A stretch of 64,000 nt of DNA from a virus (IMGVR_UViG_2808606549_000001:32001-96000); one strand, 5' to 3'. Positions 11,973 to 62,140 are shown, counted from the stretch's first letter. A program made the numbers and translations. Notes: generated from the letters alone by a model not told the origin.

Positions 11973-12236
11973 ATCAATTCCTCACATATGTATTATTTAT
12001 TTTTAATTGTCGATGAATTATTCCTTTTATCATAATTTTTTTATTCTTTAAAAATCAACTTGTCATTTATCCAGTGTGTTATATATCCCCTATCGGACTC
12101 TATGCTATTTAAACTATTTTGCAACTCTTTTGCTTTGTCATATTTCATTGTAGCTAAAAATACAATTCCGCTTCTTCCCTGAACTACATATATGGTTTCT
12201 TGATTCATTTACTCCACTCCCCATCAAATTGTTCTT

Positions 12237-13511
12237 TTATGGCCCAAAAGGATCATTGTCACCTTCGTTATCTAGCAGAAATTTATAGTCCACATAAGGA
12301 ACTTCCCTTACCACCTGACAAGCCTTTAATGTAACTGTATCATCACTAACGTCAGCAAAGTCATCGACCTCAAAGCGAACCTCAAGTAGTGCTCGATTAT
12401 CTCTTGTGCTATACGGTGACTCATTAATATTTTTTAGTTCATTGAAATATAGAACCGGAGTTCCATAGCTATAACTACTGCCTTTCGGAACTGCCCTCTC
12501 GCCAATCTTATACTCAAAGGCACTATCGTAGAAACTGAAATATTGCTCTCCGCGTTTCTCAACAAACTTATAAAGTCGCTTATTGAATAGAACTTCTCGA
12601 TGATCTACTTTTATGCCATTGGAAGGTTCTTTACTAACCTTTTTCATTCCGCCATGACCAAACAGTCGATATGTATTATTGTTAAAGATAAAGTATTTAA
12701 CTGGCTGCTTTCGGATATTATCAATCAGTTCATCAACATTCTCAATTGTCTGAGGTTCTGGAGCTTTAAAATAATCTTCACTTGTCGAAAGTTTTGAAAT
12801 GTTTTTGATTGCTTGCGAGATCGAAAACTCATCTGTATCCTTAAACATCTTATCGTAATTTTCGCCATACATTCCGCCAATGTGTTCTTTAAGTTCTGCA
12901 TAGGAAGTGATGTTAAGTCCAATGCAAGAAAGCATAACCTTCACTAGTTCAGCCTTAGAAATGTAATAACCCTTATCTCTGTATTTTTGGACTCGCAACA
13001 TTGAAACTAATGGATAGGCCGTGTTCTCGTTGTAAATCAGAATCTTTTGCGAGTTATGCTTGAAGAATTCATTGTGAAAGTAGAACAGTTCATCCTTGAA
13101 ATCAAAAGCCCCCATGCAAACCGTATAATCAAAGGTCTCAAAGATTTCATCGGCGCTATTGAAATATTTAAAGTGGATGAGTTGTACGTCTTTAGAATTT
13201 TTCCATCGGATTAGTGTTGCTTTACTCGTAGAAGCCACAAACCAACCACTACTGCTACTATAGTTTTCCTCAATAAAATCGATCAAGTCTTCCTCTTTGC
13301 GGAAGTAAACATCAATATCATTGATTTCTCGATTACACATCAGACTTGTAATGGTGCCGCCAGCGATAAAGCAGTTGTATGACTTCAGTTCAGTTACCAA
13401 ACTTTTACCTAGATGATTATATAGTTTATTCTTTTCAAATTGATACAGTTCCCGTTTCCTGACTTCCTCTTGTTTCTTCAAAATTTCATCAAGTTGGATA
13501 CCAATGCTCAA
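12237..13511 (-). CDS. Nucleotidyltransferase-like (Pol-beta fold) protein with extra C-terminal domain
   Basis: IAGGTI....REINDIDVYF (GG..DxD) and FDYTVC motifs. Confidence 0.65.
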   Translation of the reverse strand: MSIGIQLDEILKKQEEVRKRELYQFEKNKLYNHLGKSLVTELKSYNCFIAGGTITSLMCNREINDIDVYFRKEEDLIDFIEENYSSSSGWFVASTSKATLIRWKNSKDVQLIHFKYFNSADEIFETFDYTVCMGAFDFKDELFYFHNEFFKHNSQKILIYNENTAYPLVSMLRVQKYRDKGYYISKAELVKVMLSCIGLNITSYAELKEHIGGMYGENYDKMFKDTDEFSISQAIKNISKLSTSEDYFKAPEPQTIENVDELIDNIRKQPVKYFIFNNNTYRLFGHGGMKKVSKEPSNGIKVDHREVLFNKRLYKFVEKRGEQYFSFYDSAFEYKIGERAVPKGSSYSYGTPVLYFNELKNINESPYSTRDNRALLEVRFEVDDFADVSDDTVTLKACQVVREVPYVDYKFLLDNEGDNDPFGP

Positions 13512-13576
13512 TGTTTTATTCTCCCTTTATCATTGTATATTTGAATTTGAATTGCCATGAAATGAGACATTTATTG

Positions 13577-14305
13577 TTAGTCTTTACTAAATTGATTAAT
13601 TGTCAAATATACCAGCATATCTTTTGAAAGACCTTCTTCTTTAAGTGCTCGAATAGTCTTTACTTTCTTTATGGCGATCTTGTAATTATCCATCATTGCA
13701 ATCGAAAACGCCTCACTGAATCCTAGTTCTTTCATTAACTCAAGAAATTTGTTTCTTGCGAATATCTCATAAGAAGTATTGATACAGATATCATAATCAT
13801 TTTGATTTTCTACAAAAGGATATTGATATGAAATTCGTTCTTTTAGATCGTCGTATGTAAGTTCCTCGATAATCTCAATTTGTTTGGAAGATAATTTAGA
13901 ATCATCGTTATTAAGCCTATAACCATATTTATGATATTTTTGTGCTGACGCCGCTTTATCTGCATCAGTCTTTTTAACTAACCCTCTTACCTTAAAGTAT
14001 CTGTTTTTAAAATCCAATCCATAATAATCAAATACATTATCTAGATTCAAGCAAAAATGAAAGCCAGAGTAGCATAATCGAACAGCCCCCTCATAGGTAT
14101 ACGTCTTGCCAATTTCAAATTGAAAATCCCTACATATCATATTTTCATCCATACCCTTGTAACCTTCCACCCAAATCCATTCATCATCAACATTTTTCGT
14201 TTCTAAAGACGCCTCGTTGGATACAGATAAATTCTCATCATTGTTGGTCTTTTTTTCCTCTACCTCAATCGATGATGTTTCCACTGTCCTTTTCTTCCAA
14301 AACAT
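13577..14305 (-). CDS. Phage protein with YKG...C..FQFEIG..Y...C.SGFHFC domain (DUF7666-like)
   Basis: Characteristic GYKGMD..C.DFQFEIGKTY and SGFHFC motifs. Confidence 0.55.
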   Translation of the reverse strand: MFWKKRTVETSSIEVEEKKTNNDENLSVSNEASLETKNVDDEWIWVEGYKGMDENMICRDFQFEIGKTYTYEGAVRLCYSGFHFCLNLDNVFDYYGLDFKNRYFKVRGLVKKTDADKAASAQKYHKYGYRLNNDDSKLSSKQIEIIEELTYDDLKERISYQYPFVENQNDYDICINTSYEIFARNKFLELMKELGFSEAFSIAMMDNYKIAIKKVKTIRALKEEGLSKDMLVYLTINQFSKD

Positions 14306-14359
14306 TTTATATCGCCTCTAATTATTATTTTTTATTTCCACATGAAATCTGGTTTTTAT

Positions 14360-17300
14360 GGGTTCTCAATTGCTAATATAAATCCAAGGTCGAACATGAA
14401 TACTCCAAATAACAACGTATAGTATAATGACTTATCTTTTTTGGTAATCGTAAGAATCAAAGTCAAAATGACTAAAATCAGAAGCGTTAGAGAGATTATT
14501 TGAGAAGTATTCAATTAGGGCTCCCCTTTTTTAAATTATTCATCAACAATCTCGAATTCCCAAAACCCACTTTCGCCTTCTAGATAGTTTTCTAATTTTA
14601 AAAGGTCTTCGTCCCAGGCTTTATAATCGGGGATTTCAACATAAAAACCACCTTCATTTTTCTTCACAATTGCCAGTCTGCCATACTCTCCATCATGGAA
14701 TGGTCTTAATTTATGTTCAGCACATATATCTCGACCGTATCTGTCCTTGTATGCCGATTTCACTGATTCACCTCACAATGTCCGATAATACATTCTCTGA
14801 TTTTTACTCTTCCCAACAAATTGTACAGGGGAAGTTTTCATTCTTATTGATCATTTCTTTTAGTGAATACAATACTGGCTCATCCTTGCCTTCACATTCA
14901 CTACATCCATCATTGCAACACATCACCATTTCGAAATCCATTTCTTTAAGGGTTAGACGCTTGATTCTGAGTTGACAACTATCCTCTTCACCTTCGTCCA
15001 TTTCACCGAAGAATAGATTTTCGGGGTAGCAGGTTTCTTCGATGTAATGTGAAAGGGCAATGTCTGCATTCTTCGCTGCTATATATCTTTCATTTATCTT
15101 GTAAACGTTCAAAACCATATCCCTCCTTTAACACTTTATCTGGAGAGGTCATAGCAATGTTCTTCGCCATTTTAGTGGCGCACTTTAAACAAATTTTCGG
15201 AGTGGCTGTATTGCTCCACATCTCTTCTACTCCACAGAATGCACAAATATATTTAGTAATTGCTGCCCCACCAATCCCACTTCGTGAATGTTGAATGGCA
15301 TAAGCCATTTTTTTCACATCGATTGGAGATTGCTTCAGTTTTATCTTCTCTTCAAGTAGACACATTACTTCGATATGTTTATTGGATTCTTGTGCAGAAA
15401 GCTCTTCCCACGACATTTCAGATCCGAACACTTCTTTTAATGTTTCTATGTAGGCATCTTTATGTCCACGTTTCTTATGCTTAATAGAATCGAGAAACCA
15501 TGTATCTAATGACAATCCTTTCACCATCCTCATGAAATTTAACATTCATCTACTTACGATAACAGAACAAGCCATAAATCCTCCGATAAATATCCATAGA
15601 GCGAAGAAGAATAACGCGATTACCTTTTCGAGTTTATTTGGTTCCGTAACAACTGATTTACCAAACATAAAAGAGAAAAGTAGAAATGCTAAAATTGCTA
15701 TAACTTCATTCAAAATACTAAATTTTATTCCTCCAATCAAATTCACTTTTCATTGTACTTGTCTAATTGCTTGAGTAGTTGATCTAACTTAGGATTATCT
15801 ATCATGCAGTCATTGCAATAACCTGCGTACATCAACAACTCTTTTTCTACTTCGGAGCGATTAATTTTACTGCGGTAATCTCGTATGGTCGTCATAAATG
15901 TTCTATTGAGGAATGTTTGCGTCTTTTGATACTCGCTAATAATTTCTTTTTGCAGATCAATTATGGCGTCTTTTTTTGAACTGTCCAAAGAATCACCCCA
16001 TTTCCCCATGAAAATCACATTTCATTGGCACTTATTATGTATTTCATCTTGAATAGTCGGAGTAAAATTATTCGCCATCTGATGCTCATAAACTCCGAAC
16101 ATCATCCAATCAAGTGTATCTGCATAGCCGACAAATTCTAAGTCTTCTGCTTTTTCATAATACCCATTTACCATAATATCGTTTGAAACTATGTATTTTT
16201 TATTTTTCTTATTATAGACTGCCATCCATATTTCTTTTTGTAACTTTGACTCATTATTCTTCATACTTGAGAAAAAGAAAAATCCAGGAGTCGTTGATTC
16301 TTCTTTTTTAAATACTTTATAAACGCTCACGCCGCTAAGTTGCCTATAGATTTCCTCCGATTTCATCATCTTTTCTTTCCTCCTGTTGGAGTGTATTTTA
16401 TTATGTCACAATAAATCTTCCTGGTTATCTTCCATCTGATCTACTATTTGTCTAAGATCCTGCCTGTAGTCATTCACGTGTTTCACAATTCGATTGCGAA
16501 GTGTGCTGCTATTTAACTTTAGAGCCTTATTAATAATTTCAGAACAGAGTCCAATTTGGTTATAAACTTCATCAACGGTCAATTCGAATCACCTTCTATG
16601 ATATTAACTTGCTAATCATATCGATATGTATTAAACGCATATTTCATTTACTTGATAATAATGCCTGAGTTTAAGTCGTTCACTTACCTTGTGCTCCGTT
16701 TTAACCTTTGCCATTCCGATAACTTCATTATTTTTAACAAATACAATGCGATTGTGATAATGGTAAAGCATTGTACCGTCCCGTTTAATTTTAATTCTTC
16801 GACCAAGATCAACACTTCGTTGAATTTTATAATCAAGCTCCTCGAAGGAATCACATTTAAGAGTGCTCAACGGACAATATTCTTTCCATAGTTCTCTTGC
16901 TCGTTCAGTGATATTAATTTTCATGCTTCGTCTCCTCTTTTCTTATGAAATAGAAGTTTTATCGAAATAGTAAATTGTAAAGCACCTTTTCTCCATCAAT
17001 TATTTCAGCGTGTTCTTTGCTTATCTTTTCTTTCCAACTCTCAGCAAATTGCTTTGCCTCTGCTAAATCCTCAAAACCTCTGCCTAAAGCAGCACTATAC
17101 GAACCCTCATTCAACTTCTTTTGATAAAAGTTGTATTCAAATTCATCCTTATATTTTCTTCCGAAATAAAAAGGGTCTTTCCATGAAAAGCAAGGACTGT
17201 TCCCTTTCCAGGGGTCTGCCCACAATTCCACTGATAAGGGGATACCACAAGAAACACCTTTAATTATCACGCTATAGCGTCCCTGGTAAGTCTCACTTTT

Positions 17301-18607
17301 TTGTCTCGACGTACTTGCGTGTTCGCGAACTGTAACTCTAAAGAAATGCATTAAAGATTTAAATTGATGCGTCTCTCTCCAAACGAACGCTTTATAAATT
17401 GAGGGAGATTCAAATGCAGTATTCCAATAGTTATCGATTTCGTATATGTCATTTTCCTGAAACCAGTATGGTTTATTCTTAATTACCCATTCGTATTCGT
17501 TAATTTAAATCACCTCTAGACTTGATAATAGTTATCTAAGAGTTTTCCTGTGGCTGCTTCTTCAACATGTGATACCCAATCAAGAGTTCTGAGTAGGTGG
17601 TAATTTTTTTCGCCACATTTCAATCCAACAATGTCCGTATATTTCGATGTATACACGACTTCTCCGTACTTCTCTAATCGTTCTAAATTCTTGGCGTCTT
17701 TTAGCCTTAATAGAACACTTACCATTATGTATCACCCCATGAAATCTGAGTTTCGTCTAATTATTGATATTTCTTTAGATAATAGTATTCATAAAGATCG
17801 ATTGCGTTAAAAACTGTTAACAGCCCTGCAAATGAAAACCAAAACCAAGGAGTAACCGTATTTTCAAAAATTAAACCAGAGATGGCGATTCCATATAAAA
17901 TGATATTGATGCCGATGGTGAAATAAATCTGGAACTTAACAGGTGGAACCTTAAGTCTTTTCAGTGTTCATCTTCTCCTCTTTACGTTTAATAATCGTGA
18001 TGACAAAATAAATAGCCCACATTATTGAACTGAAATACCATGCCCAAGGATCGGTCAGAAAAGGAATTTTAAATATCGCAAATGAAAGTGATATAAGCAT
18101 AAGACCTGCTGAATAAATCAGCGTCCAAATATATTCTCTTCGACTCAATGTTTCTTTGCTCCCAACGAAAGATTTTCAACGGATTCTAAACTCGGATTCC
18201 AACCAAATTAACTAATTTCCCTGTCTTTTTAACCTTAAACTTCTTTGGGGCCTCATCTTGGTATTTCAAAAGTTCTTCATACGTCTCTTCGGTAAATTTA
18301 TAAATCTGGCCCTCATACTTTACAGAATCATCAATCAGAAAGTTTGTAGCATGAGGAATATCTCCTTCCCATGTGAGGGCTGCAAGTGCATATGTCTCTT
18401 TTGAATACTTGGTCATCTAATTGTCTCCATCAGTTTTGACTTTTTAACTTTATTGCGCTTCTCCCATCGACTCCGAGCAAGCATTAGATCATATGGCATG
18501 ACAACCGATTCAACACATTTGTTTACGTAATTATCATCAGGCTCAAGGCAATAATCCAAACGGTAGTCATATTGAATGTCTTCGATCCAACTTTTCATTT
18601 TTAACAC
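14360..18607 (-). other. Cluster of small accessory ORFs (14536, 14804, 15090, 15546, 15743, 16022, 16631, 16959, 17516, 17951, 18186, 18413)
   Basis: Co-oriented short ORFs with RBSs; several junctions carry the 18-bp site; 14536 is YopX-like and 17516 YlbG-like (both weak). Confidence 0.65.
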
Positions 18608-18617
18608 CTCATATGTA

Positions 18618-20455: not shown

Positions 20456-20459
20456 TTAG

Positions 20460-24903: not shown

Positions 24904-24952
24904 TTTCTTTTATGCGTCTCCTTGCATTTTTTATTTAAATGAAATGATTATT

Positions 24953-25159
24953 TTATTCGTTACGTGCAATGCCAGCATTTGCCCAAAAGACAGCAGTTTC
25001 AAGATTAGTTAGCGCCGTTGCCTTCTCTCGACTGTCAGGAACAAGCTCATCAATCGCCTTCGCAAATCCCTTTGCCAGGCTGCGTAGCGCTTCATACTTT
25101 TCTGGCTGCCCTTCCTTTGGTGAATGATAAATAAAATTGTTTTCAATAAATTGACTCAT
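24953..25159 (-). CDS. Acb2/Tad1-like hairpin protein (candidate anti-defence signal sponge)
   Basis: NNFIYHSP...KYE.LR...PDSREKATALTNLETAVFWANAGIAR; ATG 25159 with RBS AGGAG. Confidence 0.65.
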   Translation of the reverse strand: MSQFIENNFIYHSPKEGQPEKYEALRSLAKGFAKAIDELVPDSREKATALTNLETAVFWANAGIARNE

Positions 25160-25431
25160 TCTTCTCTCCTCTCTTTCCCTACCGCCCACCCATAATAACT
25201 GCGATGAAATTATGTTTTTATCTGAATTACTTAATTAAAGAAACCTGCCCAATATAGCAGACCCACTTCTACAGCAGCCGCGAAAAGCGTTGACCAGAAG
25301 TTATAATTCCCTTTTGGCTTACCGTGCAGATTCGCAGCCAACAACAATCCGATACCGATTAACACTATAATAATAATTTGTGGAATTCCCAATAAAATAT
25401 CTCCTTTTTTAGTTTCTTCGAAAGAACTCTT

Positions 25432-25899
25432 TTATCGGTTTCTACTCGACAAATATTCCGTTTCTAATTCTTGCTTGTTGATGTCATATTTCTTAAGTAG
25501 ATAATTCAAAAGATCATCGTCACTCACTTCAATACCATTGCAAAATGGACAATACTTTGAAGCAATTCCAGTGTCGTCAATAATGTCTCCGATCTCGTAT
25601 CCATATTCGCTATCTTCCTTTGACTGAACACCAAACTCTTCTTTCTGCTCAGGAGTGCCGTCAAACACTACACCATAATGATATGCATACCTAGAATTAA
25701 TGTCGTCGTTTACTACGCAAGAAGCGCATAATCGATGACTACACTTACAACAAGATGCGACATACTCTTCATAGCGACTTTCACCACATGAATCGCATGA
25801 ATAAAAATCTACTCCCAAATCTCCATCTCCCCATGAAATCTCAAATTCATTTCCAAAATTGATACCATCTCTGTTTAGACTTAGCTGGTTGCACGTCAT
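25432..25899 (-). CDS. Cys-rich zinc-finger protein (probable start at GVDFY...)
   Basis: Multiple CxxC pairs; paralog of 42586..42888. Confidence 0.6.
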   Translation of the reverse strand: MTCNQLSLNRDGINFGNEFEISWGDGDLGVDFYSCDSCGESRYEEYVASCCKCSHRLCASCVVNDDINSRYAYHYGVVFDGTPEQKEEFGVQSKEDSEYGYEIGDIIDDTGIASKYCPFCNGIEVSDDDLLNYLLKKYDINKQELETEYLSSRNR

Positions 25900-26407
25900 T
25901 ATTATCCTTTTTTACTTCTTCAGCCGTCTTTGATTCATTTTCAATTCTTTTTCTTTCATCTAGAATTAGTCGTCTCTTTTCGTAATCATCTGACGCTTTC
26001 TTTTTGGATTCTTTATCTTCTACAAACCTTGCTTTGGCAATATAGTAGTTTACTGTTCCATCGCTTTCATGAGAAGATTTTAAAATTTCAAAATTCTCCT
26101 CATTTATTTTAATGTATTCACCTCGATTTAATTCTCTGATGAAGTTTTCTGTCTCATCAATAACTTCCCAATACTCATCAATAAATCTACTAACGATTTC
26201 TCCCCTGCTATTTGATAAATCAAGCAAATCTAATTCTGGAAGTTCAGAACTATACCAATGACCATAGGGCCGATATCCAAGGTAAAATTGTTCCGTTGCA
26301 ACTTTCTGATATATCTTGCTCCTCAAAATTCTATCCTCCCTAAGCAATTTGTTCATCAACAATTCCCCACTTAATTGCTTCATCAATGTCCATATAATAA
26401 TCTTCAT
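25847..26407 (-). CDS. Hypothetical protein
   Basis: Long co-oriented ORF. Confidence 0.6.
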   Translation of the reverse strand: MKIIIWTLMKQLSGELLMNKLLREDRILRSKIYQKVATEQFYLGYRPYGHWYSSELPELDLLDLSNSRGEIVSRFIDEYWEVIDETENFIRELNRGEYIKINEENFEILKSSHESDGTVNYYIAKARFVEDKESKKKASDDYEKRRLILDERKRIENESKTAEEVKKDNNDVQPAKSKQRWYQFWK

Positions 26408-27169: not shown

Positions 27170-27760
27170 TTTAGTCTCCTTTTAGTTTGATCCTACTGAA
27201 TATCCTACAAAGAAAACTACTGCTGTGTAGAAAAACAGCACCCAGAATAGCAATGACCTAGCAGGTTCAATAATCAAGTAATTAAGAATTTTCTTCAATG
27301 CGGTTTCCTTCCTCTTGAAAGCACAGTTTTATTGGACTACTAACTTATAACTGCCTGCATCAACTTCACTTGTTGGCACGTAATCCTTAAATCCATCTTC
27401 GTAAGTTACTTCAAAGCAAATTCGTTCCTTGAGTCCTCCATCAGGTTCAACATGAACAAGACCAGTAATAATAGGAATATCGCAGTTTGGTCTTCGATAT
27501 GAATTAGTGCTTACTGGCTCTAAAAACACATAGTTCACTTTCATCTAATTCTCCTTATTCCGTTAAAATTCAAACTTCATTGGAATATACTTTATCAATA
27601 AACACTGTCTACATCAGTCCAAAATTCTTCTCCATTGTCGATTACAATTACTCTTAGTGCGTCACCATGAACATTTGTCACTTTGGCATTTTTTCCGACA
27701 TTGTGTGCATAATCACTACGATGGATTTCTACTATCTCTCCAAGTAGAAAAGAATAGTCA

Positions 27761-28330: not shown

Positions 28331-28821
28331 TTCATCTCTCCCAATGAAATATAGATTTAATAACCTCTGAGTTTAACTAACTCGTTGAATGCTCTACAAA
28401 TTAGCATATCTGGATCGTCTGGACGCGCAGGAACACTTAGCGAAAATGTTCTATCGATGAATTTCTGTAAAGCCTTGTGACACTCATTAATATCAACTGG
28501 TTCCTTACACTGCCTTTCAAACTCTTCTTGGTTCATTTTAAAGTGCTCCATAGTATTCATGTGGCATATCGTTGTTGTTGCGCTTCCTGCGCTGATTGAA
28601 TTTGGTGTTTGTAGATCCGCCCTTTTTCGTTCCTTGCATCAGATGAACTACAACATCCGTGAACCCTTTGATCTTGGCGATATGTTCGGATTCAACTCGT
28701 GCAGTGATTCTGTCTGTAAATGTTTCGTGAGTGATAATTTCTGCTTTACCATTTTCATTTTTTGCGATTGCATAGTATTGAGCCATTATTATTATTTCTC
28801 CCTTTATTTATGTTTTGTTTA

Positions 28822-29934: not shown

Positions 29935-30682
29935 TATATCTCAGACTATAATTTATCTTTTTTACATTTTATTTTTTAGCCGTCCATATTTAACCTTAGC
30001 GAGTCGGATCAACTCTGGTTCAGTTAGGCTCCCCTTGGGCATGTACTTGCTCCAGAGGGCTTCTACGGCCTCGGGACGGTAATCATCTACAGCAGCCTTG
30101 ATGTTGTGTCCTCGCTCTTTAAGCAGCAAACTAGCTAATCCTAAGAGCATCAAATCGGTTTGAATCTGTTTCATATTACCCCCATGAAACTAATGTTTTA
30201 TTGGAATTTACTTTTGAGCCATTCTTTAAATGAAACTGTAACAGTCTCCTCATAATTGACGCAGCCAATGTTTTGATCTGGTCGATATTTTTTAATACAA
30301 CCAAACACGCTATCGTAATTCGAGCACTTTTTGCATTTGCTTTCATTAAGAATATTATATTCTTCAGTTGTCATGAAATAAAACCGACGCTCTGCCAAAT
30401 TGAGATAGTTATTTAAGTATATTAGATTTAGCTCAATATCTTCCTTTATTACAATTGTGGATTTGTGGCGATAGTCAATCTTAAATCCCATAACAGGCAT
30501 GTGATTCTGAAGATATTCTTGAAGTTCTTCAATAGATTGAACATTTTCAATCCAGTAAAAATCTCCCCAACCACTTCCTGCCTTCTCACATCGAATAAAC
30601 ATATTGTTATCCTTTCCTATGAAACGTGTGTTTTATCGGAATTTCCGGCTTAAAAAGTCCTTATAAATCAAGGCTTTTTGAT

Positions 30683-31432: not shown

Positions 31433-32136
31433 ATTTTATTTTATTCTCCTTTTAGTTTTTCAATTAGTTTTTCAAGAACTTCAATAGCGTATTGATTAAT
31501 AGTTCTTTCTTCTTTGAACCACTCTGGATCATCCTTTAGTGAGGCATGAAGAATGAAACTGCCTCCACAATATTGAGCCGTCTCTTGGCAATTTCCTTTA
31601 TCAGTCCAAGCCAATTTAAGACATCCAGCAGCTAGGCTACCAACAATATCATCCTCAGTGTCATGAACAAAAACTGTTCCCTTTTTGCAACCAGGCATAT
31701 CTTTTTGAAGAATGTATTTCTTCATCTTTTGTTGACGATTGCGATCCAATATATATGGATAATTTCTTTTGTGCATCTCGTACTCTCCATGAAATTTGCT
31801 TTTTATCGTATATTAACTTACTGGATTGTTGCTAAACCTGAAGGTTAGTGTGCTGCAAAACTTTCGATTTACCGCAATGTTTCCTTCAAGCCAACAATTC
31901 TCAATCTTTTTTCGCGTCGCATTTTCTAGAAAAAACAAGTCAAATCGAAAATCTCTACCTGAATAAATCATCATCTCGTACTTTCTTTCTATATCATGAT
32001 ATGTACGATGCACATTAAACGAACCTTCATCATATCTGTATGATACATTGTCTACTTCCATCACAAGATATCCGTCACTCCATACTTCTCCTCTAATCAT
32101 AGTACCTCCTATTTTTTCTCTCATGAAATACGCCTT

Positions 32137-32472
32137 TTATCGGACTGCCAATGCGAGTAATGCCGCCTTGCAAATAGCTTCTGGGGCAGTTGAACCGTAT
32201 TGTTTGCTGGACTTCCAAACATTCTCTTTAAGTGTTAGTCGGCATGTATATTGCAAGTGTTGATACCCTTCATTCATATCAGAAAGATTGATCTCGCGAG
32301 TAATAAATTTTTCACTTAAAAATACTTGCCAAGCGGCTAACAAATCTGATGAATATGGACCAGGCTTAAAATACATGCTTTTCGTTTTATCAAAAACATA
32401 ATACTCAATAAGTGAATCCAAATATCCACCACATTCTAACTTTTCAATCTCAATCTGATTTATCTTTAACAT
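32137..32472 (-). CDS. Phage ABA-sandwich-domain protein
   Basis: YSSDL.AAWQV ... TAPEAICKAAL. Confidence 0.65.
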   Translation of the reverse strand: MLKINQIEIEKLECGGYLDSLIEYYVFDKTKSMYFKPGPYSSDLLAAWQVFLSEKFITREINLSDMNEGYQHLQYTCRLTLKENVWKSSKQYGSTAPEAICKAALLALAVR

Positions 32473-32574
32473 CTCCTTCTTAGATAAAATTCGGCTTTCA
32501 TGGGAATTTTCAATTTAGAAAACCCTTGATTTCCAACGGTTTTTAAAACGTAATTTTCCCATGAAAGGTTGATT

Positions 32575-43900: not shown

Positions 43901-44649
43901 AAAACAGTAAGATTCAATATGCCACCTCACAATCCATTGAAATTCCGCTTTTATTCTCCCAGATCCATATCGAAATCTAAGCTCCAATAAAAATTTCCCC
44001 AATGGCTATCCAACTTTTCTAGGACACTATCGGATACAATGCAGTTCACAAATTCATTATTTACTTCGTCATATTCTCCAACTTTGATACCGAAACTCTC
44101 AAGAAGTTCTCTGTCCTCTTTACCAGCACAAATTGATCCAAAATGCATATTAACCACTCCTGATAAATGTTCAATTTCATTTTAATAATTCGTTTCAATA
44201 TCATCGATACAACTTACAATAGCCATAAATACTTTGCAGTCATGAATTCCGCCTTCTTCGTTTTCACGCAGCAAATATTTGTATTCTTCAAGTGCATCTT
44301 GTTCATTGTCCCAGAAACTCACACTAGGATAGAATGGACGATTAATTCCTACAACCCACATTTTCTTCCTCCCGATAAAATCCTGATTTTAAGCATCATT
44401 GTGTCCAACAATGTGGAACATAGGATTATTAAGATAATAGTTGTAATATATCTTAGACTGAATTAATGCTTCTAAATGTAAATCGTCCATTTCCTCTACG
44501 GTTGGCTTCAATTTTGTTTTTAAATGATACCATTTGTTCTTTCCATACTTTTTCTCAAGAGCATTCAACCTTTCAACCAATCCCCAGTTCTTTGGTTCCT
44601 GATAGAAATACAAGTTATCATTCTCTCCAATCTGTGTGAAACTCGAATT

Positions 44650-45156
44650 TTATTGTAAGTCTACTTTGTAGTTGTAATCGATTGAACCTTTAGGAACATA
44701 GATAGTTGTATCTCCCGATTCCCAAGAAGGGAACCAGCGCTCTAGGTTTTTATTTTTGAATCGCTTATCAGTAATCTTAATTACTGGTTGCTCCTTATCT
44801 GTCTCGATCAGATAACTCTTTTCAGCACTCACGCTTTGAATCTGCATTCCTTTATCTGACTGAACCATGTAATAGTATTTCATTTCATCATCGACAGAAC
44901 CTGAGCCTAGAAAGAAGCGTCCGCTTACTCCAACATTATCTTTCAATGCGACCATAGGTATTTCTTCTTTTATGTATTCCTCTTGATCATTGAAAGAATG
45001 AATTAACATAGCTGCAACTAACATCGGTAATAGCGCAATCAATGCTCCGATCAAACCACTAAGTACTGATATTTCTATTTCGAATTCTTCATCAAAAAAA
45101 TAATACGAGAGTGCTCCAACAATAAAACCAATCAATATTATAAGTGCGTATCCCAA
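44650..45156 (-). CDS. Two-TM membrane protein
   Basis: Two N-terminal hydrophobic helices; SG.FFLGSG.V...YYYM motif. Confidence 0.6.
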   Translation of the reverse strand: MGYALIILIGFIVGALSYYFFDEEFEIEISVLSGLIGALIALLPMLVAAMLIHSFNDQEEYIKEEIPMVALKDNVGVSGRFFLGSGSVDDEMKYYYMVQSDKGMQIQSVSAEKSYLIETDKEQPVIKITDKRFKNKNLERWFPSWESGDTTIYVPKGSIDYNYKVDLQ

Positions 45157-45637
45157 TGATTTACCCTCCCTCTATCACAGTCCTTGATTTCCAAGCTTTT
45201 TAATCTCTTGCTTCAGTACCTTATTGCGCTTCAAATTCGCTTTCATTTCGGCTTTACGAAGAGCAATTTCGTGACCAACTTCCTTGTTATACTTATCGCC
45301 TGGAAGTACCTTAGCAACACCTTTGATACCGTCAGGGAAGATAACAATTGTTGCTGGATCGCTATAAATGACTTTGTAACCATCTCTTAATTCAATCTCT
45401 GGCTGGTCATCAACAAGTGTGATTTCTGAAGCCATTACAGGAAACCAATGTTTAGTGCCTTCGCGAGTTATGTATTCAACTCTATAAGGATAATAAATAT
45501 CAGTTTCATCAAAATGAGTAACAGTTCCTTCGACATTAACTATTTGGTGCTGTTCAGCAAGTTTGCTTTTTAAAAATACTACCTTATCCCCCACATTAAA
45601 CTTTCTCATTCTGTAAATCCCCCATGAAATTGATTTT

Positions 45638-46162
45638 TTATCGACCATCAAAATAGTTTAATACTTCTGTCCAGTTCCTCATTCTCCTGTATCGCGTTTC
45701 CGTTCTATTATGTGGAGCATCAAAGAGCAATGCTTTACCAATGAATCCTTCAAAGTTTCCTGGCTTATCATCAATGAGCCAATCAGCATTTACAATACTT
45801 TTGTTTCTTGTAAACACATAATTATCTTCTTTGATGAATGGAAAGTACTTCTTAAGCCAATTCGATTTTGGTTCAACATTATTAGGATTATATGGTGCGG
45901 TCACAACAAAAATCTCATATGTATAAGATAGTTCTCTTACTGCTTCTATGCTGCCTTCAATTAACGGTAGAGACTCGAAAAATTCGGGATCATCCAAATA
46001 CTTATAAAATTGCTTACCAGCCTTTGTTATATCATGACAGTTCTGATGAGTCATTTGACATGTCTTCAGATTATCATTGAATTCATTATTGTATCGTCGT
46101 AACCATTCAGATAGGATATCTGCCAAACATTGATCTTGATCAATTGCAATCCGTTTCTTCAA
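45638..46162 (-). CDS. 5'(3')-deoxyribonucleotidase (HAD, YorS-like)
   Basis: IAIDQDQCLAD, FVVTA, K..WL, LIDD, APHN; TTG start at 46162 with GAGGTG RBS. Confidence 0.88.
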   Translation of the reverse strand: MKKRIAIDQDQCLADILSEWLRRYNNEFNDNLKTCQMTHQNCHDITKAGKQFYKYLDDPEFFESLPLIEGSIEAVRELSYTYEIFVVTAPYNPNNVEPKSNWLKKYFPFIKEDNYVFTRNKSIVNADWLIDDKPGNFEGFIGKALLFDAPHNRTETRYRRMRNWTEVLNYFDGR

Positions 46163-46784
46163 ACGACACCTCGCATAGATTATCTTTAACGATCTGATAA
46201 ATTTCATAATGAACGTCATCGATTGGCTGCTCACCATTTACGATAAATTTCATCGGAGCTGAATATTTTTCTTTCATGAGAATGTAATTAGATCGTACCT
46301 CTTCAAGCATCGCTCTGTCTGATTCATAGCGATCATTCTGTCCTTCATTGTGTTTACCCTTGCGTCCCATACTAACCTCTGGAGAGATATCAATTACAAT
46401 GTCGATATCAGGCTTCCTCATGTATCTCTGAAGCTCTACAGTCCATTCTACGGGGATCTTATTAGCATTGGCATATGCAAGTTGGCTGAGAGTATAACGG
46501 TCTAGGATAAGGAAATCATAGCCCTCATCTTCAAGTTGTTTGTACCATTTCTGTTGTGCTTGCTTATCAGCCGTCATAATTAACTCAATGGTACTTTGAT
46601 CAACATCATACTCTTTTTTAAGCCACTTCATAATGAGTTCGCCTGTCGGTTGATCATAGCGATGATGTTCACCTTTAGCGACCTTATAACCATCTACAGT
46701 CAATCGATCCAGGAGCATGTTTGCAGCAGAGTATTTGCCACTCTTATCGAGGCCCTCTATGGCGATGATTTTGATTGTCTTCAA
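46140..46784 (-). CDS. tmk: Thymidylate kinase
   Basis: IEGLDKSGK P-loop, ILDRY..S..AY, KPD. Confidence 0.88.
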   Translation of the reverse strand: MKTIKIIAIEGLDKSGKYSAANMLLDRLTVDGYKVAKGEHHRYDQPTGELIMKWLKKEYDVDQSTIELIMTADKQAQQKWYKQLEDEGYDFLILDRYTLSQLAYANANKIPVEWTVELQRYMRKPDIDIVIDISPEVSMGRKGKHNEGQNDRYESDRAMLEEVRSNYILMKEKYSAPMKFIVNGEQPIDDVHYEIYQIVKDNLCEVSFEETDCN

Positions 46785-47263: not shown

Positions 47264-47378
47264 CCGTACCTCCTTTGATATTACATAGGCTCCACGAGAT
47301 GCAGGTTTGAATTGCAAGTGCATGGAGCCTATGTCTTACGTATTATTTACTTCTTATGAAAGGTTCATTTTATCGTAA

Positions 47379-53389: not shown

Positions 53390-53398
53390 CGGTATACC

Positions 53399-54742: not shown

Positions 54743-55342
54743 TAACTCATCTCCTCACTTAGATACAACTACACTATTTTATACTGCGTTTGTCATTGAC
54801 TATAGTATACACAATTAAAATTAAAAAATACACTCCCCTACATAAAAGAGGGAGTGCATTTTGAATGAATTTATTATGAAATTTCTAATTATTAGCCTCC
54901 TTGCTTTGATTCAGACGCTTATCTGTTTCAATTTTACCCTAACACTATCTTGTACTTATTATCTAAACAGTAATGGAAGGCATCAATTCTGTATGTAAAA
55001 ACCTTAATTTCCTCTTGAGTTTTCTTATCAATAACAACCCACAAATCCTTCCTGGAGCCATCTAAAGGACGTGAAATTATAACCTCTTTCAAGTTAATTG
55101 AACTCCTCATATAAGGCGTATACTTTATCTCTGAATTCCCTTCTAATTCGATTCCTATTCATCCAATCGTCTGCATCTGAAACGCTCAGTGCTACGTCCT
55201 GCACACCCTTAATCATGCGTACAGCAGCGACAATGGACTCAACAGTTTCTTCTCCGTAATCATCGTTTAGAGACACATAGAAACCCTTAATTGGATCAGA
55301 CATAATTATTATATCACCTCATGAAAGTATGTTTTTATCAGA

Positions 55343-56164: not shown

Positions 56165-59051
56165 TCTTCTTCACCTCATGAAATCGTCAATTTGATCAAC
56201 TATAAAGAGCAAGTAACATTATCTTTTGTAAGCATTGAGCAGAGTAAAACCAATGAAAGCAAAGATTTTAAAATCTGTTCTTTCAGTTTCAAAATCAACT
56301 ACTTGTTGAAGTTGATCAATTATTTGCTCTTCAGTTAATTCATTTTTATTGCTAATATAAACAATTTTCGTAATTGGTCCGTTTTCAGTTGCAATCTCGT
56401 ATGACACTTGATACGCGTAGTTTCCTCGTACAGTCGCTTCCAACGTCTTATTAAATGGCAAATAATTAAAGTTCATCGATCTTTATCCTTTCCTGATGAA
56501 ACTGTTATTTTATCGTAATTTTTTTAATTGTATTCACACGTTCCTCAGCTTCTTTCAACCATTCCTCTTTTATTCGAGTGGCAAGATCAAGGAGTGGCTT
56601 TTTCTTCGCACAAAAATAATACACGCTATTATATTGGGAGACTTCATCAGTTATAGATCCAATATGATTATGAAATACCTTTCTAAGTGGTTTAATTTCG
56701 ATTTTCGTTTCACTCTTGTCGACATATAGATTGTACATATGGATTCTCCTTACTTCCTATGAATGAGTCTTTTTATTGATTTAATACTTTTCGATATCGC
56801 TTTACCATTTCATACAGTAGTGGCTCGGTGATTAAATGAATCAGATACTTAACTCCACCATTCTCTTCGCAGAACTTTTCATAAGTGCTACGCAGAACTC
56901 CATCTTCTAAGACTCCCGTTTTACGCCAAGACTCATTTTCATTGAATGCTTTCTCGATTTGCTCATCAGTTAGTTCGCTCATCATTTGCTCAATTGTTTT
57001 CATGATATTATCTCCTTATGAAATAGTATAATTATTTACCTGTGAGGACTTCTTTTAATCTAATCCAAGCTTCTTCATAACTGCTGGCTGTCACCTCAAG
57101 CCTAACTGACCTGTCGCTTCTATAATAGAATTTCCAACATTTCCTTTCAGGCAAACGATCCGGCAGCTCCCACAGTTTTTCAAGTTCCATTAGTCATCCA
57201 ACCTTCTCAGAGCTGCGTCATTGGCGTCACAAACCTTCTCAGCCATTTCCCTAATTATCTGTCTCCTTGACTCCTTAGTGCGGTCTATAAAGCGTCTAAA
57301 CATCTCATTCAACACAGCATGATTCATGTCATCTAAATTCAACTCAGATTCATATTGGTCATCATGATCATCACACCATTTTTCAAGTAATCCGCCACGT
57401 TTAAATGGTTCCTCAATAGCTTGAACCAATTCGATATCAGTTTTATTTTCAATAAATTCTCTCTTCACTTCGTTATACATCATTTTACATTCTCCCTATC
57501 GTGGAAGTCTCAAATCAGAAACCTTACTGATCAAATCACGCAGGAATATCATCAAGTCTCTTTCGGTTAGTTTACATTCCGCTTCCTGTACCTTTAGGAT
57601 ATTACCAATGCACTCATTCATCAACTCATTCTTGTATGATTGTTGAGTTGCTTTTAAATCATCAACGGCATTTCCCAGAGCATATTCAGCCCTACTCATT
57701 TCACTAAAAGCGTTCATAACATTTTCATTTTTCATTTATATGTCATCTCCTCATGAAGTGGATTTTTTATTTACTCTTCAACAAAATCTAAAAGCATATT
57801 ATCTATAACATGGGATGTATGTTTGGCCTCTCCGTCAAGGAACACAACTTTGCTGCGAATATCTTCTTTCCAGACTACTTCAGCAGTGTCACCTTCGTTT
57901 ACGAGTAATCGCTCTTTTGACAAGTGTCGATAAACAACAAAGTTCTGGTTTACAATTGCATTCATATAAATCTCCTCTCTTTTCTGATAAAACTGACATT
58001 TCATTGGATTTCTACTTTAATGCTTAGAAACTTCTTACCGCTTTTTTGATGAGAGAAACATACGTCAAATGAGTTGGCATCGCATTCGACAATATTGTAA
58101 TCAACTTGATAAGCTGCGCAGACGCCAGTTAAATACCCAGAACTATATTTATACTCTGAAGATTCTTCTCTTTGGTAAACCACCGACTTAACCATGTAAT
58201 ATATATAATTTTGTGCGGCCATTTTGAGTAGTTCATTTCTTTGATTAATATACCTCACTTCCTTTTAAATAATCACCATTTAATTTCTTCTTAATTTCAT
58301 CTTTGAATTCAGTTGTAATCCTTTCGCCTTTAATCGAGTATGTAATATCTTCAGCAAAGGGCAACCAGGACTTAATTTCCTCGAATAGTTCATCAGTTAC
58401 CATAACGCGGACATCACCTTTATAAGCAGGACAGCGTTGGTAGAACTCCTTACCACGCTCAATGACGAGTACCTGTGGCCTTCCCGTTAGAACATGCTCC
58501 TGCCACTCTAGGATGCTTTGAGCGCTGTCGCTTAGATCCTTCCATTGCATTTAATCTCACTCTCGCTTTCCAATGAAATTGCATCTCTTATTTGCTTATT
58601 AGGTTAGAAAGTGTGTTAGTGCACTCGTCACACAGAACCATTTGATTTAAATTGTTTTTACTTGTGTCTCCAGCAAAGATAATATTCACCTTCTTGCTCT
58701 CTTTGCAGGAGTCACAAGTTTCAAATCCACCTCTAATTAAAATCCCCATTTCTGCATTCGCACCTCATAAAAGTGAAATATCATTGTATTATACCTCTAC
58801 TAAGTATTTAGATTCTATCCAATATTTCTGCCCAATTTCAGAAGCTACATCATGTTTCAACACTTGCACACAAACACTATCATTTCTGTATTCGGTAATT
58901 ATTGCTTCTTTGATCATTACTACTGCGTCAGTATGTGCTTTAGCAGCCATCGCTTTTGGTTTAACCTTTAGTCCATCTAGTTGTTCAGACAAAATGGCGT
59001 CGATTCGAAATTTAATATCCTTCATAACTAGCCTCCCATGAAAGTCAGTTT

Positions 59052-59228
59052 TTATCGCCTTTCTCCATTAAGACAATAACCACAAACGTTTTCACCTTTT
59101 ACAACTTTCCATCCAAGCCTCTTTAGGAATTTATCAGCAGTGCTTTTATTTTTCCCTAGATCGGATGGATTACAATCGCCACTGGCCCAATTACCACATC
59201 TGGAGCAATAACAATCATAATATCTCAT
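59052..59228 (-). CDS. Untracked 58-aa zinc-finger protein (MRYYDCYCSRCG...GWK...CGYC)
   Basis: Translated by hand; stop inside site 59038. Confidence 0.55.
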   Translation of the reverse strand: MRYYDCYCSRCGNWASGDCNPSDLGKNKSTADKFLKRLGWKVVKGENVCGYCLNGERR

Positions 59229-59270
59229 TAGTTCGAGTTGTATTTTACATCACCTCATTCCCCATGAAAT

Positions 59271-59915
59271 TCAGGTTTCCTTGGAATCTAATTTCAAAAT
59301 CTGATTATAAACTTTCTCATTAATCCTACTTTTGCCAAGTTCTAAAAGTGAAACATATTGTTTTGTAATACCTAACAACTCACCCATTTCAGTTTGAGTC
59401 TTTTGTAGTTTTTTTCTCAATTCTCGCAACTGTTCTCCGCTCATCAATGTAACTTTTATTTTCTTCTCTTTGAATTTTATTTTCTTCGTTTTGACTTTCT
59501 TAATTACTTTATATTTCTTACCTTTGTTGTTACCTCTTAGACAGCCACAGCTTTTAGTTGATCCATTTTTAAGGCTCCCCAATAATGGTTCACTTAGATT
59601 ACCGCATTCACACAAACAGCGATATCTCTTGTGTCTGCTTTTTTCATTGCTGACTCTTTCTAATATTTTTAGTTTGCCATATACCTTTCCAATTTCCTGA
59701 TCGGTTCCTACAATGCCTTTAAATTGTGTTAAGTTATATGCATTTTCTAAATGTGCTTCAGCAGCTGCTTTAGAAGAAAATCGTCTTTGCAATTCTATGG
59801 CATTTTGTTTATAAATAGTTGCGTGCCAAATTCCTTTCCACAATTCGATTACTCCACGAAACTCTTCATTTTGTGCCTCCCATCGCATACTTCCTGATCT
59901 CTCCTTAATAATCAA
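59271..59915 (-). CDS. Cys-repeat (HNH-endonuclease-associated) domain fused to XRE HTH
   Basis: YGKLKILE...CLCECG...KSCGC; LRELRK..KTQ.EMGELLGITKQYVS.LE.G. Confidence 0.7.
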   Translation of the reverse strand: MIIKERSGSMRWEAQNEEFRGVIELWKGIWHATIYKQNAIELQRRFSSKAAAEAHLENAYNLTQFKGIVGTDQEIGKVYGKLKILERVSNEKSRHKRYRCLCECGNLSEPLLGSLKNGSTKSCGCLRGNNKGKKYKVIKKVKTKKIKFKEKKIKVTLMSGEQLRELRKKLQKTQTEMGELLGITKQYVSLLELGKSRINEKVYNQILKLDSKET

Positions 59916-62140
59916 TCACATTTCCATCCGCATGGTTTCCAATAAAACAACTCTTTCATTATCTTCCTACGAATTTCTCTTTGATAAAATCTGCTGCATC
60001 ATAAAACCCGAACTTATTTGCAATTGTATATAGGTCGCTCATCTGTTCATTTAATGAATCTTGTCGTTGAGTGCATTGTTTTACTTTCTTAAATTCATCT
60101 TTCCAAAATGCCTTATCCTGGAGTTCTGCAAACTCGCTTTCAGTCAATAAGTCCTCTGGTTTCTCACGATTGGTATAGTAATATAATTCGAAACCATCAT
60201 ACAATCCACCTTCAACTGTAAGTAAAACTTCATTGGATTCAACATAAACTAAATTCATTTTTTGGTGTTTACTAATAACTACTTCGTTGTTGTCGTCGTC
60301 AGTGGTTTCGATTTCGCTTGCTGTATAAAACACCTTATTCTTACTTAATTGTTCCCATGTTTGCATTTACCTATCTCCTTATAAGTGGGGTTGATGAAAC
60401 TAGTATTTTATCTACTCATGTTCGATTAGCAGATCCATCTTTCTTCCTTCTTCCGCAATTCGAGTGTAATACTTAAATCTAACATCATAAATGTTCCAGT
60501 CGTGTATTTTATCCTCCAAGAATGCCGTTATACCATGCTGCAATTTAGGATTATCAATTGTTCTCTTAATAGGATTTTCAATTTTCTCGCCTGTTTGAGT
60601 ATCGAATTTATCTCCTTCAAACATCCGTTCCTCATCTAAAATTGACCAGACACGTTTTATCTTGATACCTAGCAAACCCATATCTTCTAACAGTGTATAC
60701 GAAACATTAGGGATTCCTCTTACAATCTTATAAGGCATCTTTTCACCCCTTCCTCCATTCTGAATGAAACGAGTCCTTTATCGAAACATTAATCTTCAAT
60801 TTCCATGTCTCTAACTCTTTCTCCGTCAACCCATACTTCGATTTTTCTATAAATAAATGCCTTTTTAGCAGCCTTGTATTTTAAAACGGCTTTATCAAAA
60901 TCCGTTCCAACATAAATGCTTTCGTTATTATCACTTAACATGCTCTCACCGATAACCAAATATACTTCCATTTTTGGCACCCTCTCTCTTCTTCTCATGA
61001 AACCAATCTTTTATCGCCTCTTTATTCTTGCCTCTTCAGCTCTTTTCCCGCGAGCTGCCCACTGCAATGCCTTAGTTCTATATTCACCAGCTTTGTCATA
61101 TTTTCCTCTCGCCGCTGCTTGTTTGCTCTTTGTTTCCCAATGTCCTGCTCTATCATTGCAATATTTTGAAGTATCTCTACTTTGAATAATATGCTCCCCC
61201 ATCTCCATGAAATCTCCGTTTCATTCAAATCTCTAATGAAGGTTCTTCTTCAATAAGTTCGCCATCCCATTTAGAGCCGTAATACCATTTTTGCAGTTCC
61301 TTAGTTGCAGCATAAATTGTCTTTGCTACTTTCGACTCAAATCCGACTTTTACAGATACGTAATCTTGAAATTCGCATGACATGTCGGTATCGATAGTTC
61401 CATCATCATTAAATCGAATGTAGCCATTTCGAAATTCAATTTCCCCACGATGCTCTTTGATCCATTCGAGTGCTCTAATATCACTCATATTAAACATTAA
61501 GATCACTCCTTTTGCCAGGAAATCAGTTATTCATCGAATATCTTTAACCTTGCTTACCAAATCATTGATAAAAATCTTCAAATCAAACTCCGTAATATCT
61601 CCAGATTCTTTCTTAATCTTTATAATCCCTTCAATACACTCTTCTATGAGTGAGTTAGTGTATGCTTTTTGCGCTACTCTCAGATCATCGTTTGCAGAAC
61701 GTGCCTTATGTTCAGCTTCGCTCAATTCTTTTCGAGTTTGTTTATGAGTTTCATTCATCTCTAGCACCCCTTGAAATTAGATTTTCGTTTACTTTCTGCC
61801 GCACAACTGACCTATTTGAAAATACTTTTATTTTCTGTTTTTAAACTATTCCAGACTCCTTCATATTTCGAGATGATATCTTTTAGCGACTTCAAAATTT
61901 CGCCATTCAATTCCAAGCGCACTTCTTTGTCATCAACTCTAACTAAAGTAATAGTTTCTCGATCCTCATCTACTTCAATTTCGTTTGGAAAGTTAACATC
62001 GTTCAACCATGAAAAGGCATTATCTTGATTTGCCCATTCTGTCAAAGGATTGCTACTGATTTGCAAGTCTTCGTTAGCTTCTTTGCTCGCAAATTCTTTT
62101 TTGATTGTTGTCTTCTTCATAATTTTAACATCTCCTCTTT

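Follow-up and report, generated by a model that had tools for sequence, protein, structure and literature searches.

A recurrent short dyad between early genes of large temperate phages: a possible binding site for a dimeric protein

Short elements repeated at gene boundaries are known from several systems, and we compare these here with an 18-bp dyad, ATRAAA-N6-TTTYAT, that recurs between genes in a 64,000-nucleotide stretch of viral DNA (the window, bases 32001-96000 of the 127,534-bp virus record IMGVR_UViG_2808606549_000001; site coordinates are counted within the window, and the genome of this phage is called G000). The stoperators of Cluster A mycobacteriophages (the L5 gp71 sites) are 13-bp asymmetric sequences bound by the immunity repressor. 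The dyad shares with them a high copy number (dozens per genome), a location in very short one-direction gaps, restriction to lytic clusters, and overlap with stop codons (stoperators often overlap stop or start codons), but it has a 6-6-6 architecture and a binder that is so far putative, and the MrpR-type master repressor uses another box. T4-type promoter-early stem-loop (PeSL) cassettes and the linker or boundary sequences of lambdoid phages are short conserved elements flanking small early genes; like the dyad, they occupy the genome's plastic region, with modules being exchanged at them, whereas the dyad is of fixed spacing, with neither a sigma-70 promoter nor a stable stem-loop.

The attC site of integrons is an imperfect palindrome of 57-141 bp recognised as a folded single strand. 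Both attC cassettes and the pdif modules of Acinetobacter plasmids recall the dyad in that promoterless genes of one orientation alternate with imperfect inverted repeats, which can overlap the stop codon. The dyad differs from them in its length (18-22 bp), its site-unique spacers, the lack of any sign of single-strand folding, the lack of a detectable IntI, attI, or Pc in the window, and its presence at only about a third of the junctions. The SAS of Cluster K mycobacteriophages, like the dyad a conserved word just upstream of the ribosome-binding site (RBS) of many genes, includes the RBS and is not a dyad, and the ESAS repeats have variable spacers. SPBRE, finally, likewise recurs within this phage family, and the gene for its repressor lies in the window; it is unlike the dyad in that about ten copies lie inside sigma-A promoters and in being long, asymmetric, read by a monomer, and of another sequence (available parts of PMC10516654 and bioRxiv 10.1101/2025.11.27.690993).

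On the coding (minus) strand, the consensus of the dyad in G000 is tcCR-ATAAAA-N5a-TTTCAT-gGGra, with nothing conserved farther upstream; the short C-rich and G-rich flanks extend the 18-bp core to about 22 bp. The window contains 46 matches to ATAAAA-N6-TTTCAT with at most one mismatch, compared with 3.03 +/- 1.84 expected from 100 dinucleotide shuffles, none of which reached 46, and 33 of these matches are in the coding (minus) orientation. A weight matrix applied to the 127.5-kb genome gave 58 minus-oriented and 18 plus-oriented sites (0-2 in shuffles). Genome-wide, 56 of the 59 sites with at most one mismatch fall within 43-113 kb, the minus-strand early/replication cluster, and only 3 in the first 36 kb, which carries the structural genes; the minus strand holds nearly every gene from 4.3 to 62.6 kb of the window. 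The spacer is fixed in length at 6 bp and free in sequence: ATA..CAT occurs in 23 copies at spacer 6, and no arm pair in more than two at spacers 3, 4, 8, and 9. The pairs repeated at spacer 5 (TAA..CAT, 6 copies) and spacer 7 (GAT..CAT, 17; AAT..CAT, 8) do not add separate sites: position 6 being A, they arise when the spacer-6 sites are read with a shift of one base. The orientation in G000 shows a strong bias and is not a rule, five exact inverse dyads (ATGAAA..TTTTAT on the coding strand) being present at 1387, 32484, 40114, 57987, and 59942. As an earlier note on this DNA had observed, the TTTCAT arm is often followed on the coding strand by a G-rich run, which in G000 often serves as the RBS.

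The dyad turned out to be a lineage-wide trait not peculiar to the phage under study. In a provirus whose polymerase is 67% identical to that of G000 (G001), NTNAAA-N6-TTTNAN is present in 76 copies, compared with 15-25 at other spacers and 25-31 in shuffles. Two IMG/VR phages of 32% G+C, G007 and G010 (polymerase identity to G000, 24% and 47%, respectively), have 91 and 92 copies versus 5-15 at other spacers, and their consensus, accCc-ATGAAA-N5a-TTTCAT-gGg, has in common with that of G000 the "a" before TTT and the C/G flanks; a further record, G006, is 99.997% identical to G007. The exact ATAAAA-N6-TTTCAT was found in 8-37 copies in each of five IMG/VR records, the reversed-pattern control giving 0. 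SPbeta carries 36 copies of NT[AG]AAA-N6-TTT[CT]AN, mostly ATAAAA-N6-TTTTA[AT], with 0-10 at other spacers. Among other named phages, the counts at spacer 6 and at other spacers were 42 and 10 for Geobacillus virus E3, 29 and 5 for Tsamsa, 14 and 1 for KKP_3916, and 12 and 5 for phiL47; Sundance, with 7 versus 5 copies, showed no excess. All these pattern sets contain chance matches, 5-25 per genome as judged from the other spacers. In the relatives' genomes, too, the dyads shun the structural part of opposite skew.

No near-identical phage record was found in the collections searched, nor any close relative when a 168-aa protein was compared with viral contigs and the helicase with genome contigs; the nearest relatives by polymerase share at most 67% amino acid identity, and G000 and G001 have only 41 reciprocal best hits. 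The stem_loop features 2622-2651 and 116406-116431 of NC_001884 coincide with two of the 36 SPbeta dyads; the depositors therefore saw two copies singly, as putative hairpins, and not as a repeat family. The available portions of the SPbeta literature, including PMC10516654, PMC5467207, and PMC8270828, contain no description of the dyad that we could find (the 1999 genome paper may mention it), and the same holds for the accessible text of bioRxiv 10.1101/2021.11.22.469490 and 10.1101/2025.11.27.690993.

The earlier note had described the stop codons of 19 open reading frames (ORFs) as phase-locked to the site, each ending 14 nt after its start. All 19 site/stop pairs are in the sequence, each fitting a minus-strand ORF whose lower coordinate is the site start +14, as are two pairs outside that set, 32561/32575 and 59038/59052; to these we add 14342/14356, 15532/15546, 25418/25432, and 25833/25847. 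The stop at +14 comes from the left arm itself, whose positions 2-4 read T-R-A (TAA, or TGA in ATGAAA), so that no ORF in this frame can extend beyond the triplet. ORFs were taken from a home-made ORF picker, not a trained gene finder, and an upstream ORF was counted if it had at least 45 aa. Genome-wide, 57 sites have such an ORF: it stops on the arm triplet in 26 (binomial test against 1/3, p = 0.036), at 2-12 nt before the site in 21, and at positions 3-10 in 5, and it runs through the right arm in none (0/57). When ORFs stopping slightly earlier are included, 33 of the 57 share the T-R-A frame (p = 1.2e-4 against 1/3), and this share exceeds one third in all five genomes (44-58%). Once the TAA inside the motif is allowed for, the +14 peak is thus mostly a built-in stop, and a moderate real excess remains. 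The offset distribution in related phages is in agreement: position 2 is the modal upstream-stop position in all five fully analysed genomes (17/40, 7/45, 17/58, 18/73, and 7/18), with few stops beyond it. In the SPbeta RefSeq annotation, 9 of the 18 dyads that follow a gene contain the annotated stop by hand count (yoqG, yoqS, yoqY, yorT, mtbP, yorZ, yosC, yosF, and yosR). For annotation, the dyad accounts for the many small genes in these phages whose ends fall on ATAAAA or ATGAAA.

A regularity stronger than the +14 offset concerns placement: the dyad stays out of translated sequence and close up against the gene that precedes it. It is present at 45 of the 124 same-strand junctions overall, at none of the 25 whose gap does not exceed 20 nt, and at 22 of the 45 whose gap measures 21-60 nt; it lies between the stop codon and the next RBS, exclusively in untranslated gaps, none of them shorter than 21 nt, and the start codon follows 0-49 nt past the right arm, mostly at 10-29 nt. 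Where the arm serves as the stop, the A:G ratio in the left arm is 13:2 in G000, compared with 10:7 elsewhere; the same split is 15:20 versus 23:66 in G007/G010, with a like trend in G001 (combined p = 0.03). The arms of G000 are mostly ATAAAA/TTTCAT, largely because stop-serving arms prefer TAA to TGA. The sites of the window are listed below, with positions given relative to the site.

11143..11160, minus strand: dyad preceding the DNA polymerase gene; upstream stop 62 nt before
12013..12030, minus strand: dyad with 1 mismatch; upstream stop at -12
12223..12240, minus strand: dyad; arm TAA ends the 424-aa ORF 12237..13511
13557..13574, minus strand: dyad; upstream stop at -4
14342..14359, minus strand: dyad, additional to the earlier list; arm TAA ends ORF 14356..14514
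15532..15549, minus strand: dyad with ATGAAT arm, additional to the earlier list; arm TGA ends ORF 15546..15746
15736..15753, minus strand: dyad; upstream ORF stops in the spacer (position 9)
16008..16025, minus strand: dyad, perfect palindrome ATGAAA/TTTCAT; arm TGA ends ORF 16022..16369
16945..16962, minus strand: dyad; arm TAA ends ORF 16959..17351
17739..17756, minus strand: weaker dyad with ACGAAA arm; gap larger, and no ORF of 45 aa ends nearby
24939..24956, minus strand: dyad preceding the ribonucleotide reductase small-subunit gene; arm TAA ends ORF 24953..25189
25204..25221, minus strand: dyad; upstream stop at -11
25418..25435, minus strand: weak dyad with TTTCGA arm, additional to the earlier list; arm TAA ends ORF 25432..25899
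25833..25850, minus strand: dyad with ATGAAT arm, additional to the earlier list; arm TGA ends ORF 25847..26407
27315..27332, minus strand: dyad; arm TAA ends ORF 27329..27544
28344..28361, minus strand: dyad with ATTAAA arm; stop at position 3
30184..30201, minus strand: dyad; arm TAA ends ORF 30198..30602; GGGGG 9 nt before the ATG
30619..30636, minus strand: dyad; upstream stop 48 nt before
31789..31806, minus strand: dyad; upstream stop at -8
32123..32140, minus strand: dyad; arm TAA ends ORF 32137..32472
32484..32501, plus strand: dyad inverse to the genes, exact plus-strand match; others alike at 1387, 40114, and 59942
32561..32578, minus strand: dyad with the best matrix score; arm TAA ends ORF 32575..32745
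38602..38619, minus strand: dyad; arm TAA ends ORF 38616..38801
41003..41020, minus strand: dyad, ATGAAA/TTTGAT; upstream stop at -4
41646..41663, minus strand: dyad; upstream stop at -6
41897..41914, minus strand: degenerate dyad, TTAAAA/ATTCAT; arm TAA ends ORF 41911..42147
42165..42182, minus strand: degenerate dyad; upstream stop at -7
42908..42925, minus strand: degenerate dyad, ATAAAT/TTTTAT; arm TAA ends ORF 42922..43140
43128..43145, minus strand: dyad; arm TAA ends ORF 43142..43426
43937..43954, minus strand: dyad; arm TAA ends ORF 43951..44157
44375..44392, minus strand: degenerate dyad, TTAAAA/TTTTAT, below the matrix cut-off; arm TAA ends ORF 44389..44613
44636..44653, minus strand: dyad; arm TAA ends ORF 44650..45156
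45624..45641, minus strand: dyad; arm TAA ends ORF 45638..46237
47356..47373, minus strand: dyad after the Sak4-like gene; upstream stop at -7
55321..55338, minus strand: dyad; upstream stop at -6
56496..56513, minus strand: dyad; upstream ORF stops in the spacer (position 7)
56759..56776, minus strand: dyad; arm TAA ends ORF 56773..57003
57753..57770, minus strand: dyad; stop TAA abuts the arm (-2)
57987..58004, minus strand: dyad in the inverse form, ATGAAA..TTTTAT on the coding strand; arm TGA ends ORF 58001..58258
59038..59055, minus strand: dyad; arm TAA ends ORF 59052..59228
59264..59281, minus strand: dyad with AGGAAA arm; upstream ORF stops in the spacer (position 9)
60394..60411, minus strand: dyad; TAG abuts the arm (-2)
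60764..60781, minus strand: dyad; upstream stop at -9
60997..61014, minus strand: dyad with overlapping rival ORFs; 61011..61208 ends in the arm and 61022..61228 at -9
61207..61224, minus strand: dyad, perfect palindrome; TGA abuts the arm (-2)
61517..61534, minus strand: degenerate dyad, ATGAAT/TTTCCT; arm TGA ends ORF 61531..61767
9568..9585, minus strand: weak matrix match inside the polymerase gene, probably due to chance; likewise 56075

We then asked whether the dyad acts as a folded strand or as a duplex site. At positions 3:16 of the 218 matches in G007 and G010, the combinations were G-C in 89, A-C in 51, G-T in 32, and A-T in 9; Watson-Crick pairs numbered 106 compared with 98.3 expected (p = 0.10); single changes were frequent, and the double change that restores pairing was rarer than independence predicts. 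No compensatory arm changes were thus evident in these two genomes, the arms varying independently. Folding of six G000 copies gave z values of -0.8 to +1.4, no better than shuffles, and of four G007 copies two folded well (z = -3.3 and -3.7) and two did not; the arms of the SPbeta dyads are pure A/T. The lack of compensatory change together with the poor folding indicates that the dyad is not an attC-like hairpin. Nor did it show the features of an intrinsic terminator or REP-like hairpin (terminator-like sites, 13, 10, and 7 versus 9.7, 10.9, and 9.8 in shuffled sequence), and Rfam gave no match in the window at the gathering score.

A conserved sequence whose half-sites vary independently and are set at a constant distance around a free spacer points instead to a dimeric protein on duplex DNA, and we favour, at about an even chance, the reading that the dyad is a duplex-DNA binding site for some dimeric phage-encoded protein. 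The 6-6-6 geometry would suit a helix-turn-helix dimer of the Cro/Xre type. A protein-binding dyad could survive only in untranslated gaps and would be squeezed toward the upstream gene as far as coding allows, so that a gene in frame with the T-R-A would end on the arm and genes in the other two frames would have to stop a few bases before the dyad; the +14 stop would then follow from the T-R-A in the half-site plus tight packing. The dyad punctuates the early gene clusters of SPbeta-like large siphophages, which the host polymerase transcribes, and the likeliest role of binding would be a genome-wide control or insulation of these early units, in the manner of a stoperator roadblock.

The earlier note had further proposed that each unit reads arm-RBS-ORF-stop-in-arm and forms a promoterless cassette, as in integrons. 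Such units do occur at many junctions, all in one orientation, but only the 45 of 124 same-strand junctions mentioned above carry a dyad, so most genes are not cassettes. In line with that proposal, the region showed no excess of sigma-70-like promoters (46, 61, and 65 versus 72, 68, and 75 in shuffled sequence) and few terminators. The likeness to integrons as a mechanism was not supported: the site has only 18-22 bp, the arms are uncompensated, and the G000 copies fold no better than shuffles. Neither an IntI-like integrase nor attI or Pc was found; the PHROGs search covered 84 proteins of the window and the Pfam search 70 proteins, both limited to proteins above 55-60 aa outside the structural module. 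The only integrase-like proteins detected were a large serine recombinase, an MrpR-family protein, and a 349-aa protein whose sole domain match in Pfam is an N-terminal SAM-like domain. The integron analogy thus fails on every defining feature that could be tested.

Module exchange was assessed from homology end points in the early regions of SPbeta, phi3T, Goe13, Goe14, and BUCT083 (matches with 85% identity or more). Each genome had 6-13 end points no farther than 20 nt from a dyad centre, compared with about 1 at random positions. Among junctions whose gap was wide enough for a dyad, breakpoints made up 27 of the 31 that carry one and 30 of the 59 that do not (Fisher's exact test, p = 6e-4). 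The end points lay at the outer edges of the dyad, left homology ending at 17-25 and right homology beginning at -10 to +4, with 2 inside. Dyads with the same spacer (e.g., CTAATA or TATTCC) have neighbours, both upstream and downstream, that differ among the SPbeta-family phages; modules are swapped at dyad edges in the same relative place, and a shift to new loci was not seen in the five phages. One G007/G010 locus shows the clean absence, between two dyads, of a single gene together with one dyad. The junction test of G007 against G010 gave no difference and had no power, almost no junction being spanned by homology. SPbeta-family dyads are thus shown to behave as joints of a mosaic, module exchange there being a side effect; the exchange may be driven by a protein, or recombination may simply be guided by identity islands of 18-22 bp.

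Several observations weigh against the reading of the dyad as a duplex binding site with exchange as its by-product. No small DNA-binding protein was detectably common to all the dyad-bearing phages (tblastn at 1e-4, five genomes). A symmetric dimer does not predict the asymmetry of orientation in G000, 23 coding versus 6 inverse, and the doubling of the G-run as the RBS, with the dyad placed close before it, would also suit a role at the RNA level. In all five genomes, simple packing does not fully explain the excess of the T-R-A frame, and stop-codon choice explains only part of the arm asymmetry of G000 (at non-stop sites, left A:G 10:7 versus right T:C 4:13, p = 0.08). As to the breakpoints, the counts repeat related genomes, the per-genome one-sided p values being 0.06-0.32, and conserved islands tend to end BLAST matches by themselves.

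A weaker, non-integron form of the cassette idea would make the dyad primarily a recombination joint, either a core-type site with a 6-bp overlap or a microhomology linker swapping modules between co-infecting phages, with a YopP/YomM-like tyrosine recombinase or a Sak4-type annealase as the candidate enzyme. We consider this unlikely, even though the arm-6 bp-arm architecture, the breakpoints at dyad edges, by which the dyad passes on entire together with either its left or its right flank, the excess of breakpoints at dyad junctions (27/31 versus 30/59), the joining of one dyad and spacer to several partners in SPbeta, phi3T, Goe13, Goe14, and BUCT083, the clean absence of a dyad plus gene at the G007/G010 locus, and the concentration of dyads in the variable early region would all fit it. 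The spacers vary by site, so a tyrosine recombinase could pair orthologous sites only, and no active recombinase is linked to the dyads. Dyad-free junctions, moreover, are breakpoints half the time, the G007-versus-G010 junction test showed no difference, and selection for evolvability alone would be weak for keeping 40-90 sites across polymerases 23-67% identical.

Somewhat less probable, in our estimation, is an RNA-level element of polycistronic early transcripts, be it a processing or stability site or one that couples termination to initiation at the next RBS. The dyad always stands between stop and RBS, is never translated through, and in G000 is oriented with transcription; these features would agree with such an element, as would the G-run after the right arm serving as the RBS, the bias of the upstream ORF frame to the arm stop, and the good folding of some G007 copies (z = -3.3 and -3.7). 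Dyad symmetry, however, would be meaningless on unpaired RNA, and pairing is contradicted by arms without compensatory variation and by the G000 copies and the all-A/T SPbeta copies, which cannot form a stable stem; in addition, the start codon follows at widely varying distances (0-49 nt) and no Rfam family matches.

We would be equally reserved about a phage system that makes the early region a series of exchangeable gene slots, the arms being bound and the 6-bp spacer acting as an address by which like-numbered junctions recombine. If that doubtful proposal were true, SPbeta-, Tsamsa-, and E3-like phages would possess an order-preserving counterpart of integron and pdif-module shuffling, in which the embedded stop lets any incoming gene terminate correctly.

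It is highly improbable that the dyad is the operator of the MrpR/YopR/SroF homologue at 52421-53389, i.e., the G000 version of SPBRE. G000 does encode this MrpR-family protein (Pfam MrpR_N_CB, 83 bits; MrpR_C_cat, 65 bits; both cut-offs, 27), adjoined by a YopQ-like protein (the pair spanning 52421-54742), but the box derived from ten SPbeta promoters lies inside the -35/-10 promoter and is unrelated in sequence to the dyad, and SPbeta and G001 carry both elements. According to the available part of PMC10516654, MrpR ChAP-seq in SPbeta gave ten peaks, all at SPBRE in promoter regions, and the accessible text of bioRxiv 10.1101/2025.11.27.690993 describes SroF as binding a 24-26-bp box as a monomer. 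The dyad was therefore rejected as an SPBRE, from which it differs in sequence, symmetry, number, and place. As for an SPBRE-like box in G000, AATATGTAT was not enriched (7 copies, mostly within genes). A separate AT-rich word, AATAATACATAT, has 5 genome copies, 4 of them on the minus strand of the window (at about 11997, 12680, 18622, and 36875), some between -35/-10-like hexamers (TCGACA..TACATA at 11997; TTGACT-18-TATAGT at 36864-36835); these copies may be candidate early promoters with the MrpR box proper to G000.

Least probable of all is a promoter for a phage-specific or phage-modified RNA polymerase with one start per gene, for, although the dyad sits 10-30 nt before start codons in a cluster with no excess of sigma-70-like promoters and a homologue of the single-chain RNA polymerase YonO is encoded (52% identical to SPbeta YonO), promoters are not palindromes, no conserved -35/-10-like element surrounds the dyad, and the dyads avoid the late module, whereas YonO transcription is confined to the late operon and begins at a single site ahead of yonK (PMC5467207, as far as available).

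The dyad matters in that SPbeta is a model temperate phage whose repressor boxes, arbitrium, and late polymerase are closely studied. A fixed-spacing dyad repeated 36-92 times per genome across polymerases 23-67% identical implies a conserved reader protein, and also that a large group of phages has a level of control, or of module exchange, that had escaped notice; the question is directly testable in Bacillus subtilis.

The genes of the window, judged by their similarities, are the set of an SPbeta-like large temperate siphophage. The PHROGs search identified a Pol III alpha-type polymerase, a DnaB-like helicase, a primase, ribonucleotide reductase, thymidylate synthase, a Sak4-like annealase, and the large serine recombinase. 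The YonO homologue (847 aa) is encoded beyond the window, at 121079-123622 (plus strand) of the genome, and homologues were also found in G001, G007, and G010.

A second repeated word, TATAACAGCA, is present in 10 coding-strand copies at 107.9-113.8 kb of the G000 genome, to the right of the window; the related (T)ATAACAG or CTTAACAG stands just before the RBS after many dyads in G007 and G010 (including L041/L042 of G007).

Directly downstream of the lysogeny-control genes (the MrpR/YopQ-like pair) lie genes for an AgrB-family protein (window 51744-52286, minus strand; Pfam PF04647, E = 1.4e-13) and a membrane protein (51083-51739). The arbitrium genes of SPbeta sit near its lysogeny-control module, and the AgrB-family locus may provide a peptide signal of another kind, the Agr type, for choosing between lysis and lysogeny. 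At 98.0-102.6 kb of the genome, a tubulin/FtsZ-family GTPase gene (L024:2020-3114, plus strand; Pfam E = 1.6e-16) adjoins that of a 796-aa protein with a weak TrwB/FtsK-like match (L024:4241-6628, plus strand), and the two could form a module for positioning or partition of the TubZ/PhuZ kind. The accessory region of G000 encodes a protein with a PemK/MazF-like toxin domain (L024:9276-9536, minus strand; Pfam E = 7e-21); in SPbeta, the arbitrium product acts via the host MazF, according to the available part of bioRxiv 10.1101/2025.11.27.690993.

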